From the NCBI GenBank assembly GCA_045633025.1, contig JAZQXS010000159.1:1-56381 (forward strand): a stretch of DNA of 56,381 bases, read 5' to 3'. How positions within the stretch are numbered: the stretch's first letter is position 1; each line of letters begins with the position of its first letter. Both the position numbers and the translations under genes were made by a program. The notes under the pieces were generated by a model. That model was not told the DNA's origin and did not search any database. It saw only the letters and a program-made list of their open reading frames with translations. This document shows positions 297 through 35,659 of this stretch, piece after piece. Source of the DNA: Eubacteriales bacterium (GTDB lineage Bacteria; Bacillota; Clostridia; Oscillospirales; CAG-272).

Positions 297-485
297 TCAC
301 TTCACCAGATCGTCCATAGTCTTTCCGAGAACTCTGGAAAGCTCCATCAACACGGGAACCGACGGGACCTTGACTCCCGTCTCAAAATAGTGGAGTGCCA
401 CTTGCGTTACTCCAACAGATTCGGCAACCTTCTGCTGAGACCAATTTTTCTCTTCTCTTGCCTTTTTCAAATTTTCCGAAAGCAA
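297..485 (-). CDS. XRE-family HTH regulator, Cro-like (62 aa)
   Basis: TTG start preceded by GGAGG at 8 nt. HTH motif WSQQKVAESVGVTQVALHYFETG. The gene is divergent from the S24 repressor. Confidence 0.8.
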   Translation of the reverse strand: MLSENLKKAREEKNWSQQKVAESVGVTQVALHYFETGVKVPSVPVLMELSRVLGKTMDDLVK

Positions 486-524: not shown

Positions 525-553
525 TTGACAAAGTGTATTTTTTAGAGTATAAT
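525..553 (+). promoter_or_regulatory. Consensus sigma70-type promoter pointing at the tandem RNA elements
   Basis: TTGACA at 525-530, a 17-bp spacer, then TATAAT at 548-553. Confidence 0.6.
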
Positions 554-654
554 GAAAGCGCCAACCAACAAAATACTAACTAAAATTACTTTTATCGGTG
601 TATTTGGTTTATATAATCAATCCGACAATGCGGAAGGACTATCATTGTTTATAT

Positions 655-1000
655 TTCACAACTGAAAATTGCCCCGTAAGACGGGAGAAAGGAGGTATCT
701 GCCCATGGAGGCAATACTGAAACTCACCCGCGTGTCTTGTTGTCAACGTATCGAAGCGAAAGCATTTCCGAGCGTTGGCTTCACCGTGTAGGCTACGGGC
801 AACCCGCGGTCGCGGTAAAACGGAATCAAAACCGTTAAAGCTACACGATTCATACACTTGTAACCCCAAATTGCAGGAGGCGTGGAGACACAACATTACC
901 CACTCCGTGTGAAAGACGCAAAAATTTGGCGTTCTCGGTTCCTCGTTTGGGGCTTGGAGCCGAGAATGGTTACACCTGCGAGGCAATTTTCAGTTGTGAA
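655..1000 (+). ncRNA. Structured RNA candidate, unit 1 (about 346 nt, family unknown; strand tentative)
   Basis: A perfect 19-bp closing helix pairs 655-673 with 982-1000. Internal helices include 786-791/841-846. Blocks are shared with unit 2. There is no conserved ORF. Confidence 0.55.
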
Positions 1001-1005
1001 GGTCA

Positions 1006-1029
1006 TAACCTCGATTGTGATACCATTAT
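1006..1029 (+). repeat. 24-nt direct repeat TAACC[T/A]CGATTGTGATACCATTAT, copy 1, immediately 3' of RNA unit 1
   Basis: 23/24 identical to 1382-1405. Confidence 0.85.
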
Positions 1030-1038
1030 TTTGTTACA

Positions 1039-1383
1039 TATCATTCATCGCAAAGCCCAACGAGGCACGAAAGGAGGAATCTCCGTTGGAGAAATTTTTT
1101 CTTTCGCCTGCGCATTTGATGGTCGTCGGCAGCGTAATTGCGTTTGAACCCCGACGGCTGTCCGATACGGGCTACGGGCGAGTGCTTATTTAACACAACA
1201 AACAACAAGCACTTGGGCTGAACCACAACAGTCGAAGCCGTATCACCCCCTACACTCCAGCCCCAAATGGTGAGATCGAAAGACTTTTTTTCAGTATGGG
1301 GAAATGCACAAATTTGGCATTTTGCAGAGACCTTTGGGGAGGTCGATGCAAGATGTCCTCGTCGGGCTTTGCGATGAATGATA
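1039..1383 (+). ncRNA. Structured RNA candidate, unit 2 (about 345 nt, homologous to unit 1)
   Basis: A perfect 20-bp closing helix pairs 1039-1058 with 1364-1383. Helix 1164-1170/1238-1244 covaries with unit 1. Shared blocks are GAAAGGAGGWATCT, GGCTACGGGC, CCCCAAAT, GAAAGAC, AAATTTGGC and TTTGGGG. Confidence 0.55.
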
Positions 1384-1405
1384 ACCACGATTGTGATACC
1401 ATTAT
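1382..1405 (+). repeat. 24-nt direct repeat, copy 2, overlapping the last 2 nt of RNA unit 2 (ends 1383) and continuing 3' of it
   Basis: 23/24 identical to 1006-1029. Confidence 0.85.
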
Positions 1406-1516
1406 AACTCACTAAACGCACTTTGTCAACATAAAAACTCACTTTATTGCACTTTTGTATGATTGCACAAAAACAACTTGGTGAGTTTAGTGATTTTATG
1501 TAAAGGAGAAATAAAA

Positions 1517-2170
1517 ATGTTTTGGTCAAAACTTGTATCTCTATGCAATCAAAAAGGAACAAGCCCAACCGCTGTATGCGTTGAGCTTGGATTTTCAAAC
1601 GCGCTTGCAGTAAAGTGGAAGCGTGGTTCCGTACCGAGAGACACCACGATCCAAAAGATTGCCGACTATTTCGAAGTCCCTGTTTCCTATTTCTCGGAGT
1701 CGGACGTTTCCACCGCCGCCTCCGTTGCCATCCGCATGGCGCGTGATCCTGCGTTTGCCGCATCGGTTCAGAATCGAGGCGTGCGCGTTCCTGTTTATGG
1801 AAACGTGGCGGCAGGCATACCGATCGAGGCGATCACCGACATCGAGGACTATGAGGAGATATCGCAGGAGATGGCGGCAAAAGGAGAATATGCAGCTCTG
1901 CGCATCCACGGAGATAGCATGGAGCCAAAAATGTCCGACGGAGACGTGGTGATCGTCCGCTTGCAGGAAACCGTGGAGAGTGGTGAGACCGCAATCGTGA
2001 TGGTCAACGGTAGCGACGCGACCTGCAAGAAGATCATGCGCACCGACGAAGGCATCATGCTGATTGCCACCAATCCCAAATACGCCCCCATGTTCTACTC
2101 CAACAAGCAGATCGAGGATCTTCCCGTCCGCATATGGGGTAAAGTCGTGGAGTTGAGAGCGAAGTTTTAA
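1517..2170 (+). CDS. LexA/CI-type phage repressor (N-terminal XRE HTH plus C-terminal S24 peptidase)
   Basis: AGGAGA RBS 7 nt before the ATG at 1517. Catalytic Ser motif GDSMEP and Lys motif CKKI. HTH SPTAVCVELGFSNALAVKWKRG. Confidence 0.85.
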   Translation: MFWSKLVSLCNQKGTSPTAVCVELGFSNALAVKWKRGSVPRDTTIQKIADYFEVPVSYFSESDVSTAASVAIRMARDPAFAASVQNRGVRVPVYGNVAAGIPIEAITDIEDYEEISQEMAAKGEYAALRIHGDSMEPKMSDGDVVIVRLQETVESGETAIVMVNGSDATCKKIMRTDEGIMLIATNPKYAPMFYSNKQIEDLPVRIWGKVVELRAKF

Positions 2171-2523: not shown

Positions 2524-4059
2524 ATGAGCCCCCCAAAAACGACATTCTTCTTCATAAAATTCGGTTATTCACTAATTTTTTATGCTTCTTTTTTAGTCTC
2601 TACCATATTCCTTGTTCTCTTTTTCGCCAATGGAGCTTTCATCAATGGGCTTGTCTGGGCAGTTATTATTTTTACAGTTTGCCTTTACTTGTTATTATTT
2701 GAAACCATACAATACAAAAAAGTATTAAAAAAACAAGATTTTGATTCTCTACAGAAGCTAAATGATAGCAACACTATTATGTCCGCCGTAAACATGGTGA
2801 TGGCTTTCTTTGGAATCCCTATCATCTGTAGCACGATCCTTTCTGTTAGTTTCGATGTCTCTTACCATGCTATACCATCTTACAATTTGGTATGGTTGCG
2901 CATTGTACCATATGTAAATATAATTGCGTATTCGGTAACGCTGATCACCTTTTCCCTCATTCACTTGATTTTTTTCTCCTCTCTGTATCGTCAGGAGCAG
3001 ATAAAGAAGAAAGCTACTGAAGAACTAATACTTCAAGAATTGAAGAAAAGATTTGAAAGCAAAAAAGATGATCTATCAAAACTAACGGAAAAATATTATA
3101 ATGCGGTCTGTAAGTATAACGAGAGCCTACCATATCCACCTTTTTTGATTTTTTCAGACTCCGATCTGTCGCCCGTCATACTCTCTTCTCATTACTGGGA
3201 TAATGCAAACGAATTATTAAAATGTTATATGGTTGAAGATGGATTTTGTAAAAAAGAAATTAAAACCTTGACAGAAGACATGCAAACAGTAATCGATGAC
3301 ACTATAGTTTTTGTCTCCGAACTTAAGAACCGCATTTCTCCCGAATGGAATGACAGCGAATCCATATCTTCTGCGATTTATTTTATTATCCGAAACAATA
3401 TCATTCGATACTATTGGGATACTCTAAAAGGAGATGGCATTGAAACAATAGAACAGTTGGTCCTACATCTTTGTAATGAAGAAACCGATAATACGTTCCG
3501 CGTACCTAAAGCTTTTTATACCTATTTTTGGATATACGAAACGGATATTAACTTGCCATTAAAAGAAACTTACAATCGTTTTTCAAATGAAATTGACGAA
3601 TATTACAAGGAATATAAAGTAAACTCAAAACGCGAATCGTTTTTTGACAATTACACAACAAATGCTAATTTCGCCGATCAAATTCCACCTATTGATGCTG
3701 AAGCAGATATGATGTTCCAAATCGACATCATGTCGGGGAGGCAGTTTGAAGAATTTATAGCAGATTTCTTCAGAAAACAGGGCTATAAAACAACTTTAAC
3801 CCCATCTTCTGGAGATTATGGAATTGACGTTATCATCGAAAATGATTTCTTGAAAATCGGAATCCAAACAAAATGCTATACCGATAAAGTCCCAAACGCT
3901 GCCGTTCAAGAAGCAGTAACGGGAATAAGGCATTACGGTTTGGATAAGGCAATGGTGATCACAAACAGTTATTTTCAGCCATCTGCGATTCGACTTGCAA
4001 AAGATAACAATGTTATTCTTTGGGATCGAGACAAATTGGAAACCGAGCTTACCAAATAA
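2524..4059 (+). CDS. Membrane-anchored protein with a C-terminal Mrr-like (PD-(D/E)XK) restriction-endonuclease domain
   Basis: Several N-terminal hydrophobic helices (for example FINGLVWAVIIFTVCLYLLLF). The C-terminus reads SGRQFEEFIADFFRKQGY...GDYGIDVII...IGIQTKCY...AMVITNSYF, typical of the Mrr catalytic domain. Confidence 0.7.
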   Translation: MSPPKTTFFFIKFGYSLIFYASFLVSTIFLVLFFANGAFINGLVWAVIIFTVCLYLLLFETIQYKKVLKKQDFDSLQKLNDSNTIMSAVNMVMAFFGIPIICSTILSVSFDVSYHAIPSYNLVWLRIVPYVNIIAYSVTLITFSLIHLIFFSSLYRQEQIKKKATEELILQELKKRFESKKDDLSKLTEKYYNAVCKYNESLPYPPFLIFSDSDLSPVILSSHYWDNANELLKCYMVEDGFCKKEIKTLTEDMQTVIDDTIVFVSELKNRISPEWNDSESISSAIYFIIRNNIIRYYWDTLKGDGIETIEQLVLHLCNEETDNTFRVPKAFYTYFWIYETDINLPLKETYNRFSNEIDEYYKEYKVNSKRESFFDNYTTNANFADQIPPIDAEADMMFQIDIMSGRQFEEFIADFFRKQGYKTTLTPSSGDYGIDVIIENDFLKIGIQTKCYTDKVPNAAVQEAVTGIRHYGLDKAMVITNSYFQPSAIRLAKDNNVILWDRDKLETELTK

Positions 4060-4833: not shown

Positions 4834-5961
4834 ATGGAACAATACTACATTTCCTCAACCAAATACAATATTCAAGAGCGCAGTACGAAGCTGAACGGCA
4901 AGGTCTATGACGTTGTGTTCTACCTGCAAACGCTCGATGGCGTGAAAAAGCAGAAGCGGCTATCCGGGTACAAGACCAAGACCGCCGCAAAAGAGGGATA
5001 TACCAGCTTCGTGACAAAGCATTGCACGCTCGCCAAGGTAGCGCCGAAACGAAACGAGGGAGCAACCGAGATTCCGACCGTCGCAGAGATGTTCCCACTC
5101 TACATTCAATCGTGCGCCAACCAAACCAAGGAATCCACCATTTACGACCGCCAAGGGATCTTCAAATCCATCATCCTTCCCATGCTCGGAAGCCTCCGCA
5201 TGACCGAGCTGACAAAGGAACGTCTGTATCAATGGCAAGATCAGCTATGGTCCATGAAAAGTGATCGGACAAAGGATTTCTATAGCTACGAGTACCTTTC
5301 CTCTATCCGAGGACACCTGAGCGCGTTCCTTTCATGGGCCGAGGCGCGCCATAGCTACGCCAATAATCTGAAGCTCGTCAAGAAGCCGAAGCCGCGCGTC
5401 CAAAAGACCGAAATGCAATTCTGGAGCCGCGAGGAGTTCGACCAATTCATAGAGGTGGTCGATGACCCACGTTACAGGATGATGTTCACCATGTCCTTCT
5501 TCACAGGAAGAAGAAAGGGAGAGATCCTTGCGCTCTCCCCCTCCGACATCAAAGCGGATTCCATTCTGTTCAATAAAACCTATTCCCGCAAGACCGTGGA
5601 CAGTTCCCCATACAAGATCACAACGTCGAAAAACGAAAAGATCGGATACACCCCCATCTGCCCCGCGCTGCGGAACGCCCTTGCCGGGTATGAGGGAGAA
5701 GCCCCGTTCTTTTTCGGCGGAGAAAACCCCATCCATGAAAATACCCTCACCCACGCCTTTGAAGCCTATATCAAAAAGGCGGGAGTCAAACGCATCCGCT
5801 ACCACGACCTGCGCCATTCCTTTGTATCTATCCTGCTGCACCACAACGCAAACTATATGGTCGTCGCAGATCTCATTGGAGACACCGTGGATCAAGTCAT
5901 AAAGACCTACGGACACCTCTACGAAACCGATAAAATAAAGGTTGTCGAGAGCATAATTTGA
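4834..5961 (+). CDS. int: Tyrosine integrase
   Basis: Catalytic signature GRRKGEILAL...RYHDLRHSF...TYGHLY. Confidence 0.9.
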   Translation: MEQYYISSTKYNIQERSTKLNGKVYDVVFYLQTLDGVKKQKRLSGYKTKTAAKEGYTSFVTKHCTLAKVAPKRNEGATEIPTVAEMFPLYIQSCANQTKESTIYDRQGIFKSIILPMLGSLRMTELTKERLYQWQDQLWSMKSDRTKDFYSYEYLSSIRGHLSAFLSWAEARHSYANNLKLVKKPKPRVQKTEMQFWSREEFDQFIEVVDDPRYRMMFTMSFFTGRRKGEILALSPSDIKADSILFNKTYSRKTVDSSPYKITTSKNEKIGYTPICPALRNALAGYEGEAPFFFGGENPIHENTLTHAFEAYIKKAGVKRIRYHDLRHSFVSILLHHNANYMVVADLIGDTVDQVIKTYGHLYETDKIKVVESII

Positions 5962-9138: not shown

Positions 9139-9288
9139 GTTTGGAGGTCTTGAAAATGACTATCAAAAAGTCGTCCCGGCGACTATAAAAAGCAGATCAA
9201 GCCGGGAGCGTTCCCGCCGATCATGGCGGGAGGTTCTGGAACGGTAAGACCGTAAACGCGAAAAGCGGCGGCGCGTTCGGGGGTATCT

Positions 9289-10935
9289 ATGGAATACACA
9301 TTGACGAAAAATGCGGACTTTGGATCTTTGGAAATCACTTTTGACGGCAAGCCCGCTCAGTCGATCCGTGACGCGCTGAAGGCGTTGCGCTTCAGATGGC
9401 ACGGCGTGCGCCGCGTTTGGTACGGATACGCGGACGAACAGACGACCCGCGCAGCTCTTGACGGTTCGACCGTCGGTTGGACCGTTCCGGCGGCAAACGT
9501 TCAGAACAACGACCAGGCAGAACAGCCCGCGCGCGTTTCTTCCCTTCCGTCGATCCGGTTCTATTACAACGGGATCAAGGTCAACGGCGGCGAGCTGATC
9601 AAGTGCCATTATAGCGCGGATGCCGGCAGCGTGACCATCTACGCGCAGAGATACGGCGCAGACCTTCCGCGCGCATTGTTCGACGTGCGGAATGATACCG
9701 ACTTCATGACGGACTACTTCGACAAGGACAGCGCAACGATTCCGGCAGATCATCCCCTTTTCCGCTTTGCGTTCTATATGGCAAAGAAAGAGGAATACAA
9801 GCAGCACGCGCGCACGCTGGAACGTCAGAAGAAAAACCCGCGTTTATATTCCTACTTGACAGCAGAGCAGCGCGCCGCAAAAATGCGCGAGTTTGAACAG
9901 CTCACCGATCCCGGACAACCTACAAACGCGGACCTTCTGAAGATCGAGGACATGAACGCGTCACGCGAGAAAGCACGCAAAGAGGCAGAGGAAGCCGCCG
10001 AGCGCGAGCGCGTCGCAACCTTTGAACGGAAGAAGGCAAGCGGAGTGCAGACCATCCGCGAGGGCTTGGAGCGTTTCCCGCTGGACGAGAACGGCGGCGA
10101 CTTTGTTATGATCGAATGGTCAGAGCATCCCGCATTTTATGAGCACGAGGAGCGCGGCGGGCTGAAGCTCTCCATCATGGCGGCGGATTGGATCATGCGC
10201 GAGCTGGACGAGGAGCAGAACAGAACCCGCGAGACCGAGGACGGGCGCGGCTGGTACGATAAAACGAGCTTTAGGATCTACAAGGGCGGCGAGTGCGTTT
10301 ATAGTGGACGCTATGACCTGGGCGACAATGATGGCGGCTTGATCGCGCACATCAGCGCAAACGCGGCAAACCGTGACCTTGACGAGGACGAGCGAGCCGT
10401 TATCGAGTGGATCAGAGCGCAAGCGGGGATCACTTCCCCGATCCCCGTTCCCGTACACGTTGCGACCATTGCGGAACAGATCACCGCGGCGGACTTGCAG
10501 AGCGGAGAAGATTTTACAATGCTCTATCTTGATCCGTGGATCATGACGGCGACCACCACGGCGGCAACGGTGAACAGCGCGAGCGCGTGCGAGTACGCAC
10601 AGCACAAGGACGCCGCGCGGATCGAGTACACGCCGAAAGGAAAACGGAAGGCGCGAACGATCCACATCAGCGGGCGCGATGCGTGCGTGATATGGCGCGG
10701 CATTCTTCCCGACGTTCCGAACAGTATCAAATACACCGATTGCGGCAGCTCGTCCATGCTCCAGCGCGTCAATTATGCGGGAGAAAATGCGCTGGACTAT
10801 ATGCGGCGCGCGGTAGAATATTATCGCTCTATCGGCTTTGTGCCGGTGTTTGATACGGTATCAGAGCCGGAACAGCCCGAACCCGTGGAAAGTCTGGACG
10901 ATTCCAGTGTGGAATATATCGCATATTATTCATAA
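9289..10935 (+). CDS. Large hypothetical protein. Its N-terminal module resembles domains of large polyvalent proteins from conjugative elements and phages.
   Basis: 548-aa ORF. The N-terminus GSLEITFDGKPAQSIRDALKALRFRWHGVRRVWYGY is recognised by pattern only. Confidence 0.65.
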   Translation: MEYTLTKNADFGSLEITFDGKPAQSIRDALKALRFRWHGVRRVWYGYADEQTTRAALDGSTVGWTVPAANVQNNDQAEQPARVSSLPSIRFYYNGIKVNGGELIKCHYSADAGSVTIYAQRYGADLPRALFDVRNDTDFMTDYFDKDSATIPADHPLFRFAFYMAKKEEYKQHARTLERQKKNPRLYSYLTAEQRAAKMREFEQLTDPGQPTNADLLKIEDMNASREKARKEAEEAAERERVATFERKKASGVQTIREGLERFPLDENGGDFVMIEWSEHPAFYEHEERGGLKLSIMAADWIMRELDEEQNRTRETEDGRGWYDKTSFRIYKGGECVYSGRYDLGDNDGGLIAHISANAANRDLDEDERAVIEWIRAQAGITSPIPVPVHVATIAEQITAADLQSGEDFTMLYLDPWIMTATTTAATVNSASACEYAQHKDAARIEYTPKGKRKARTIHISGRDACVIWRGILPDVPNSIKYTDCGSSSMLQRVNYAGENALDYMRRAVEYYRSIGFVPVFDTVSEPEQPEPVESLDDSSVEYIAYYS

Positions 10936-35545: not shown

Positions 35546-35659
35546 GATTTTTCTCCTTTCTGAAAAAATAAAGAGAGCTACAAGGAATTTGCAAAAAATG
35601 CAAATTGCACTCATAGCCCCCATTGGCTCTTCCTCGTTCCCCATTGAACGAGGGAAATA

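Follow-up and report, generated by a model that had tools for sequence, protein, structure and literature searches.

The 56,381-nt contig JAZQXS010000159.1 (the window) contains two tandem units of about 345 nt between the cro-like gene and the repressor gene of a temperate-phage immunity switch. These units very probably belong to a genuine family of structured RNA which is new to Rfam. Ten units from about seven lineages, including both in the window, form the covariation sample; seven sequence anchors are present in all ten, and the spacing of these anchors is near-constant. Unit length ranges from 323 to 375 nt across the family.

The initial annotation of this DNA described two homologous units in the gap, each closed by a long-range helix and each containing the same sequence blocks in the same order. 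All of these elements are present in the window, and the parts of each unit are as follows.

655-1000 (plus strand): unit 1, 346 nt; nhmmer E = 1e-70; closest to unit B of the related locus L032 and to the unit of L038
655-680 (plus strand): 5' arm of the closing helix P1 of unit 1, partner 975-1000; C-A mismatch C674/A981
732-738 (plus strand): 5' strand of helix P4 of unit 1, GTGTCTT, partner 913-919 (AAGACGC)
786-846 (plus strand): three-way domain of unit 1; P6 = 786-791/841-846, PL = 819-823/832-836 with loop AAUCAAAA
857-877 (plus strand): hairpin PC of unit 1; the loop shows CCCCAAA at 864-870
930-968 (plus strand): hairpin P8 of unit 1; the loop shows UUUGGGG at 946-952, the predicted loop-loop pseudoknot partner of 864-870
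1039-1383 (plus strand): unit 2, 345 nt; nhmmer E = 1e-84; about 85% identical to the L029 unit (blastn)
1164-1244 (plus strand): three-way domain of unit 2; P6 = 1164-1170/1238-1244, GGCTACGGGC at 1170-1179, a variable hairpin, PL = 1216-1220/1229-1233
1261-1339 (plus strand): 3' part of unit 2; CCCCAAA at 1261-1267, P4 3' strand at 1302-1307, AAATTTGGC at 1310-1318, P8 loop UUUGGGG at 1333-1339

An inverted-repeat search returns the closing repeats 655-676/979-1000 in unit 1 (22 nt, 95% complementary) and 1039-1065/1357-1383 in unit 2 (27 nt, 96% complementary); when wobbles and mismatches are allowed, both closing helices reach 26 positions. The shared blocks are GAAAGGAGGWATCT (at 687 and 1069), GGCTACGGGC (791 and 1170), CCCCAAAT (864 and 1261), GCAMAAATTTGGCRTT (918 and 1306) and TTTGGGG (946 and 1333), in the same order in both units. 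In the three-way domain of unit 1, the invariant CTACGGGC at 793-800 lies inside GGCTACGGGC (791-800). The two internal helices which had been proposed to covary, GTGTAG 786-791/CTACAC 841-846 and GATACGG 1164-1170/CCGTATC 1238-1244, are exact. Relative to dinucleotide shuffles, the plus-strand folds have z-scores of -5.5 (unit 1) and -10.9 (unit 2); the corresponding minus-strand values are -4.4 and -7.1. Block searches and the covariance model find no further copies in the 56-kb contig beyond these two.

Related units were obtained by three routes, following the homologue search which the initial annotation had proposed; they come from about seven lineages and three phage types with differing cro and repressor genes. 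The first route examined, in ENA and Logan assemblies, the loci of repressor relatives at 78-94% identity. One unit is present in L029, two units (A and B) in L032, L033 and L034, and a single B-like unit in L038, L039 and L040; L027, L031, L042 and L044 are without a unit, and in these the slot holds open reading frames (ORFs) or the gap is short. In the second route, a refined three-block pattern was scanned over JGI metagenomes. The result was L050, from a different phage whose cro gene is not the same and whose repressor is a helix-turn-helix (HTH) protein of non-S24 type; its relatives L055-L064 also contain units (including the recombinant L059). The third route scanned a context-free pattern over IMG/VR and gave L068 and L069, which represent the third phage type. 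The unit always has the sense of the repressor gene, and slot and orientation are constant in all lineages, including the two from context-free pattern scans.

Copy number varies from zero to two among close relatives. Units are accessory cargo of the switch and not a fixed component of it, because close relatives have none or have ORFs in the same slot. Other genes lie between promoter and unit in L029 and L055. In relatives (L027 2002-2349, L029 1938-2258, L042 2-214), this slot is occupied by genes for small proteins which are encoded on the plus strand and end in a hydrophobic anchor, as in L027 and L029, and also by minus-strand small ORFs directly behind the minus-strand promoter. Since relatives carry cargo genes at this position, the slot is a general accessory-cargo site.

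Two of the related units are hybrids. When the single unit of L038 (2230-2552) is compared with L032 (3170-3865), either arm of its P1 helix matches unit A over the outer 10 bp and unit B further in. This P1 is a compensated hybrid and not the product of a simple deletion. In L059 (1961-2335), the 5' half is distinct and the 3' half is that of the L055 unit, which leaves P1 degraded (6 mismatches in 17 positions).

Several other searches gave no units. GenBank phages were searched by blastn in distant mode using the window, L050 and L032 regions as queries, with no match. Exact-block patterns from the two window units alone gave nothing in IMG/VR, or chance matches inside genes. Relatives of the repressor in IMG/VR have an ordinary cro-repressor gap of about 150 bp, without a unit. 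In GTDB representative genomes, the first three-block pattern gave chance matches only. This pattern (GGCTACGGG plus CCCCAAA) was too strict, as it would miss L032 units A and B, L050 and L069; the lack of GTDB matches therefore says little. Six of the chance matches (L016, L019, L021, L022, L024 and L026) contain an identical small SymE/AbrB-like gene and flanks in mouse-gut Lachnospiraceae; the gene is unrelated to the units and probably part of a shared mobile element.

The units share one fold, which has the following elements.

P1: closing helix; 22-29 positions in nine units, while the tenth, the recombinant L059, has 17 positions of which six are mismatched
P2: short helix inside P1
P3: hairpin behind the Shine-Dalgarno (SD) sequence, with the start codon in its loop
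P4: GUAUCUU with AAGAUGC; encloses P5, P6, PL and PC
P5: variable hairpin
P6: three-way domain with the invariant CUACGGGC and a variable hairpin
PL: 5-bp stem with the loop GAAYYNNAAC
PC: hairpin showing CCCMAA
Linker: single-stranded AAAAAUUUGGC behind P4
P8: long hairpin showing UUKGGG

The CCCMAA loop follows the GAAYYNNAAC loop at a distance of 41-42 nt. Three single-stranded blocks of the core are invariant: CUACGGGC, GAAYYNNAAC and AAAUU-GGC.

Helices were defined by the anchors and tested with cross-unit and slid controls. In a fixed-register alignment of the core (P4, P6 and PL spliced, gap-free), 94.1% of cells are paired and 13 of 19 pairs change on both sides. These both-sided changes cover all seven pairs of P6, which confirms the internal-helix covariation first noticed between the two window copies, and four of the five pairs of PL. 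None of 500 shuffles matched the observed values for percentage paired, both-sided changes or covariation score; slid controls reach only 25-43% pairing. When the 5' strand of one lineage is paired with the 3' strand of another, the score falls from 35 to 12 for P1, from 21 to 12 for P8 and from 15 to 10 for P6, and the scores of the P5, PL and PC stems are also lowered. This control is uninformative for P2, P4 and the loop-loop pair, whose sequences are largely conserved.

A covariance model, R1, was built from units of other phages only and contains no window sequence. It describes a sub-domain of 115 positions (P6, CUACGGGC, PL with its GAAYYNNAAC loop, and PC). In the 56-kb window it matches 781-882 (plus strand, 59.9 bits, E = 5.8e-12) and 1160-1279 (plus strand, 59.6 bits, E = 6.6e-12); nothing else falls below E = 0.1 in the window or in the unit-less relatives. 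RNAalifold recovers the fold only in part from the anchored alignment.

The pairing of CCCCAAA with TTTGGGG was suggested in the initial annotation. The support is a single clean compensatory change, CCCCAAUG with CAUUGGGG in L032 unit A in place of CCCCAAA/UUUGGGG. In L038 the loop-loop pair is extended (CCCAAAA with UUUUGGG). A CCCMAA/UUKGGG loop-loop pseudoknot is thus likely but not proven. Two further structures were considered and rejected. A pairing of CCCCAAAT with AAATTTGGC fails in L032 unit B and L038, which have AAAUUGAGC and no compensating change; an intrinsic terminator behind P1 fails because there is no U tract there.

P1 contains a mismatch at one conserved place, the C of a conserved UUGCCC run in the 5' arm. 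Most lineages have C-A at this place, L029 has C-C and L050 has C-U; L032 unit B alone lacks the mismatch. The window sites are C674/A981 and A1059/C1363, and equivalents are found in L029, L032 unit A, L038, L050 and L069. The conserved mismatch may be a recognition feature.

The functional strand was assessed by scoring stems with G-U and A-C counted equally. The inner helices have 50 G-U and 11 A-C pairs on the plus strand (p = 5e-7), and P8 alone has 19 and none. This G-U excess points to the plus-strand RNA, in the sense of the repressor gene, as the folded species. In eight of nine units, both the folding energy and the z-score are also lower on the plus strand. P1 runs in the opposite direction, with 3 G-U and 11 A-C pairs on the plus strand; this excess is read here as a selected irregularity in P1 and not as evidence for the minus strand, although the minus-strand copy of P1 may have a role of its own. 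The initial annotation left open a folded RNA or single-stranded DNA. Covariation and model R1 bear out the RNA; the G-U asymmetry speaks against single-stranded DNA.

The units do not show the defining feature set of any catalogued RNA family. Rfam 15 (4227 models, including ROOL, GOLLD, OLE, raiA, C4, 6S, RNase P, group I/II introns and riboswitches) gives two matches in the window at the gathering threshold, a Pistol ribozyme (9169-9238) and a gut-2 motif (35609-35656). In the region 480-1520, the same models give eight chance-level matches at E <= 10, all at least 25 bits below threshold; across six loci with related units, their only match is a tRNA elsewhere. A search of 500-1520 with ARAGORN returned neither a tRNA nor a tmRNA. 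These results agree with the earlier opinion that the element is not a tmRNA, RNase P, 6S RNA or group I/II intron. A retron was also doubted, and no reverse-transcriptase domain is present among the neighbour genes in the window (HTH regulators, S24 repressor, Mrr_cat protein and integrase) or in the gene tables of the related loci. No description of the element was found in the literature. Candidates from a human-microbiome survey of structured RNAs are at most 219 bp, and one could overlap part of a unit (PMC8040213). The units resemble ROOL, GOLLD, OLE and raiA in being large multi-helix covarying RNAs, which are often prophage-borne; in contrast to these, the unit RNA is shorter, has an SD sequence with a start codon and has a fixed position in the immunity switch. 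It is a new family within a known kind, that of large structured phage-borne RNAs and structured leaders.

Each unit contains a translation initiation site close to its 5' end. The sites and short ORFs in the window are as follows.

687-707 (plus strand): initiation site of unit 1; SD GAAAGGAGG at 687-695, ATG at 705-707 in the P3 loop
705-791 (plus strand): short ORF of unit 1, 28 codons, not conserved
1069-1088 (plus strand): initiation site of unit 2; SD GAAAGGAGG at 1069-1077, TTG at 1086-1088
1086-1193 (plus strand): short ORF of unit 2, 35 codons

In all ten units, AGGAG is followed by exactly one start codon (ATG, TTG or GTG) 7-10 nt on; by our own estimate this would occur by chance with a probability of about 0.18 per lineage, or about 5e-6 over seven lineages. 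The SD variants, (G)AAAGGAG(G) and AGAGGAGG/GGAAGGAGG, lie 28-45 nt from the 5' end of P1 in all ten units. The start codon is predicted to be unpaired in the P3 loop (probability 0.67-1.0). For nine of the ten units, weak pairing of the SD sequence with a U tract is predicted (in unit 2, with 1095-1106); unit 1 of the window is the only one in which the sequence is predicted to be exposed. The earlier hint that the block might be an exposed decoy does not hold, as the SD sequence has a start codon behind it in every unit and is mostly weakly paired.

The short ORFs are 16-36 codons long and differ in stop position, although they always cover the 5' strand of P4. The conserved CCCGCGUAUC block is read in three frames: one in unit 1, one in L032 unit A and L069, and one in the rest. 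A conserved 'PAYL' leader peptide was rejected for this reason, as unit 1, L032 unit A and L069 are shifted in frame. In relatives, gene callers left the units free of genes. The region thus contains no conserved protein, as the initial annotation had argued from its ORFs. Ribosome recruitment looks conserved from these sites; the peptide does not.

The units lie between two promoters which face each other, in the following locus.

297-485 (minus strand): cro-like HTH gene (Pfam HTH_3, E = 1.4e-14), which leads the leftward early operon
525-553 (plus strand): sigma-70-type promoter (TTGACA, 17 nt, TATAAT; consensus match 12/12)
554-654 (plus strand): conserved leader with the 3' end AAUGCGGAAGGACUAUC
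1005-1029: first copy of the F block, ATAACCTCGATTGTGATACCATTAT, a 25-nt direct repeat behind unit 1
1381-1405: second copy of the F block, at the minus-strand promoter, where it supplies the -10 region and the bases transcribed first
1401-1429 (minus strand, read 1429-1401): promoter (TTGACA, 17 nt, TATAAT; consensus match 12/12)
1517-2170 (plus strand): repressor gene, HTH and Peptidase_S24 (Pfam PF00717, E = 2.6e-29)

The layout of cro gene (minus), plus-strand promoter, leader, cargo, minus-strand promoter and repressor gene (plus) is shared among the loci, with about 0.3-1.3 kb between the facing promoters. The plus-strand promoter points into the array and towards the repressor gene, as had been reported, and is a consensus match only; counterparts are readable in L029, L032, L038, L050 and L069. 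The minus-strand promoter was overlooked in the initial annotation. It points leftward through the array towards cro, and counterparts are readable in L029, L031, L032, L038, L050, L055 and L069. The promoter region 525-554 and the minus-strand promoter are 73% complementary and both start with TTGACAAAGTG; from these two features, the facing promoters may have common operator sites. A palindrome, ATCGGAGATTTCTCCGA(T/C), is found in two copies over the -35 and -10 regions of the minus-strand promoter in L050 (4018-4070) and L055 (2420-2470). These palindromes, which lie beside a repressor-like gene, are probably operators. They overlap the minus-strand promoter and not the plus-strand promoter, which therefore points to the former as the repressed, lytic promoter. 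The locus L002 contains an identical cro-like gene with early genes behind it.

The leader is about 80% identical in L027, L029, L032 and L034, irrespective of the cargo downstream; in L029 a plus-strand cargo ORF uses its 3' end for ribosome binding. A leader motif is common to two phage types which otherwise differ, AAUGCGGAAGGACUAUC at 626-643 of the window and AAUAAGCGGACUG at L050 3536-3551 and L055 1931-1946.

The 25-nt repeat ATAACCWCGATTGTGATACCATTAT behind each unit was also overlooked. Together with 1053-1048, the first F block forms a weaker minus-strand promoter-like site at 1053-1025. In the unit-less relatives L027, L031 and L042, the F block is the start of the minus-strand transcript and is followed by minus-strand ORFs with good ribosome-binding sites. 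This duplication of the F block suggests that units move as promoter-proximal cassettes.

The reading preferred here is that the unit is a processed, ribosome-stabilised RNA from the lysogenic promoter which opposes the convergent lytic transcript; its probability is put at roughly one in three. The plus-strand promoter, on the lysogenic side, would drive the module, which precedes the repressor gene. P1 would isolate each module and would probably serve as a processing or stability stalk for a double-strand-specific RNase. Tandem copies must avoid mispairing, and this would account for closing helices which differ completely and do not cross-pair. A ribosome at the SD sequence and start codon would shield the RNA from 5'-to-3' decay in the manner of STAB-SD, the peptide being irrelevant. 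The resulting stable RNA would be perfectly antisense to the 5'-most 0.35-0.7 kb of the lytic transcript, which starts at the minus-strand promoter, and could tilt the convergent switch towards lysogeny and immunity. The conserved tertiary core might contribute stability or bind a factor.

Parts of this scheme have precedents. The STAB-SD sequence, taken here to be exactly GAAAGGAGG, is likewise a polypurine near the 5' side of an RNA and complementary to the 3' end of 16S rRNA. The stabiliser of phage SP82 follows an RNase III site, and the SD block of a unit similarly lies just inside a long duplex. In cry3A mRNA, a 30S subunit on an untranslated SD-like sequence blocks RNase J1 (PMC4113751). 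STAB-SD starts no translation, whereas the units always have a start codon behind the SD sequence; this sequence, for the most part weakly paired, also belongs to a conserved fold of some 340 nt.

The facing promoters of coliphage 186 lie only tens of base pairs apart. In contrast, the promoters here are separated by the 0.3-1.3 kb given above, the overlap holds cargo and the regulators are unrelated. Coliphages 186 and P2 have face-to-face promoters and divergent regulator genes; as either transcript has to pass over the opposing promoter, transcriptional interference is expected (PMC7708051); the convergent promoters here, which are consensus matches, also lie between diverging regulator genes.

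RNAs which act in immunity are also known. The c4 RNAs of P1 and P7 and the CI RNA of P4 are derived from leaders in the lysogen and pair with the lytic transcript; they are about 80 nt long and pair via short loops at ribosome-binding sites. Expression in the lysogen and pairing to the lytic transcript would be shared by the unit RNA. Unlike these RNAs, the units have no match to the Rfam C4 model, and their complementarity is that of a plain cis-antisense pair.

Six points weigh against this reading or limit it. The promoters are known as consensus matches only. Antisense action alone needs no tertiary blocks conserved across sequence-divergent phages. The conserved mismatch in P1 is equally compatible with an antideterminant against RNase III cleavage. 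The pairing of the SD sequence with the U tract in nine of ten units means that ribosome access may be conditional. The sample of units is small and contains related (L032 unit B and L038; L050 and L055) or recombinant (L059) lineages, so that the covariation statistics are indicative only. Finally, L027, L031, L042 and L044 manage without a unit, which is hence not essential to the switch.

A doubtful but still plausible alternative is that a ribosome-engaging structured RNA of a new class, with a compact tertiary fold which displays the SD sequence and start codon, is a working part of the switch. Folded and translated states would be mutually exclusive and would feed the translational or physiological state of the cell into the decision; or the RNA would be an immunity factor, with variable helices setting specificity and tandem copies extending it.

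Another unlikely reading is a trans-acting 'ornate' RNA which is expressed in the lysogen as cargo (a moron) and whose core binds a protein or the ribosome, with a role in superinfection exclusion, defence or host modulation. Its position would then simply be that of a cargo slot. The same slot holds small C-tail-anchored proteins and other ORFs in relatives, copy number is variable, and invariant single-stranded blocks with a pseudoknot, retained across unrelated regulators, are typical of RNAs which bind a partner. Against this, all lineages have the unit in exactly one slot and orientation and none was seen at other cargo sites; there is also no nameable partner.

A cis-acting leader of the repressor transcript is unlikely and ranks just below the trans-acting RNA. 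Such a leader would act as a translation or temperature switch which tunes read-through, stability or Rho sensitivity, and thereby repressor dosage. The SD sequence faces a U tract in nine of ten units while the start codon is in a loop. The short ORF runs through P2, P4 and P5, so that translation and folding would be mutually exclusive; in unit 2, the P3 hairpin with its U tract (1080-1092) scores as terminator-like. The unit is always upstream of the repressor gene and in the same sense. The fourU thermometer offers a partial parallel, as a run of U faces the SD sequence AGGA(G) in a weak helix rich in G-U and A-U, but the unit hairpin is one arm of a much larger fold. The units are closed by P1, are stackable and lie more than 130 nt from the ribosome-binding site of the repressor gene, which argues for an autonomous unit, and the genes between promoter and unit in L029 and L055 also speak against a leader.

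It is improbable that the minus strand is the functional one, as 5' leader of the lytic cro transcript, or that both strands function. The antisense of the SD block, CCUCCUUUC, would in this case mask the ribosome-binding site of cro, and P1 would be a fully paired 5' hairpin. In the phages with an S24 repressor the minus-strand promoter starts transcription 10-30 nt from P1, and the plus-strand C-A mismatches of P1 are G-U pairs on the minus strand (11 versus 3). The complement of the cro ribosome-binding site (492-501) is perfectly complementary to 688-697, and the minus strand also folds below shuffled controls. These points are outweighed by the G-U excess of the plus-strand inner helices, above all P8, and by a conserved start codon which is meaningful on the plus strand only. 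The position of the P1 mismatch is also conserved, and in some cases C-C or C-U stands there, which are unpaired on either strand.

A structured mRNA for a small protein, in the style of the hok/sok type I toxin-antitoxin system, is very improbable. The closing helix would keep the mRNA inert, and antisense RNA would come from the facing promoter. The outlines are alike: hok mRNA has about 350-400 nt, a long 5'-3' closing helix, an internal SD sequence with a short ORF and transcription from the opposite strand, and the units contain a closing 5'-3' helix, SD sequence, start codon, short ORF and facing promoter. Several of the peptides share M-x-E/K-K-x-F-x-x-P-A-Y-L. A conserved toxin is not found. 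The peptides have 16-36 residues with differing C-termini, come from three frames over the same conserved nucleotides and, at 16 residues, are too short to span a membrane; there is no conserved hydrophobic peptide or frame, and most of the conservation, covariation and structure lies outside the ORF and downstream of the stop codons.

A DNA-level element (MITE-like, a recombination element or a cruciform) would fit the long terminal inverted repeats, the variable presence among relatives and the recombinant units L038 and L059, but it can practically be dismissed, as it had been for a miniature inverted-repeat transposable element (MITE) in the initial annotation: the terminal repeats are wholly different between copies, no terminal repeat common to copies or lineages and no target-site duplication was found when hallmarks of such elements and of insertion sequences were sought, the internal helices covary with a strand-specific G-U excess, and the 56-kb contig has no further copies.

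The remainder of the lysogeny module contains further genes. A 511-aa protein encoded at 2524-4059 (plus strand) is hydrophobic in segments near its N-terminus and has an Mrr_cat restriction-endonuclease domain at its C-terminus (E = 3.9e-29); its gene is a candidate for prophage-encoded defence. L042 has a SNIPE/T5orf172 protein at the equivalent position. The module ends with the integrase gene (4834-5961), which adjoins a host NifS-like gene whose closest relatives are Clostridiales and Eubacterium sequences. The host is an uncultured Clostridia-like bacterium.

Both Rfam matches in the window lie outside the switch. The self-cleaving Pistol ribozyme (9169-9238, plus strand; 65.2 bits, gathering threshold 34.5) is just upstream of a 548-aa ORF with an LPD25 domain (9289-10935). 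The gut-2 RNA motif (35609-35656, minus strand) scores 47.2 bits, with a gathering threshold of 39.8.

To our knowledge, solid covariation support is rarely available for large structured RNAs, and only a few of these belong to a defined regulatory circuit. The unit RNA lies at the heart of the immunity switch of temperate phages from uncultured gut Clostridia-like hosts, between facing promoters, and has an unusual combination of a conserved tertiary core with a conserved SD sequence and start codon for a non-conserved peptide. Even if its function proves mundane, it provides a family new to Rfam and a compact target of about 340 nt for structure determination. If the proposed roles are correct, lysis-lysogeny control in Gram-positive phages would gain a further layer, made of RNA, and the units would represent a natural RNA cassette which is modular and stackable.

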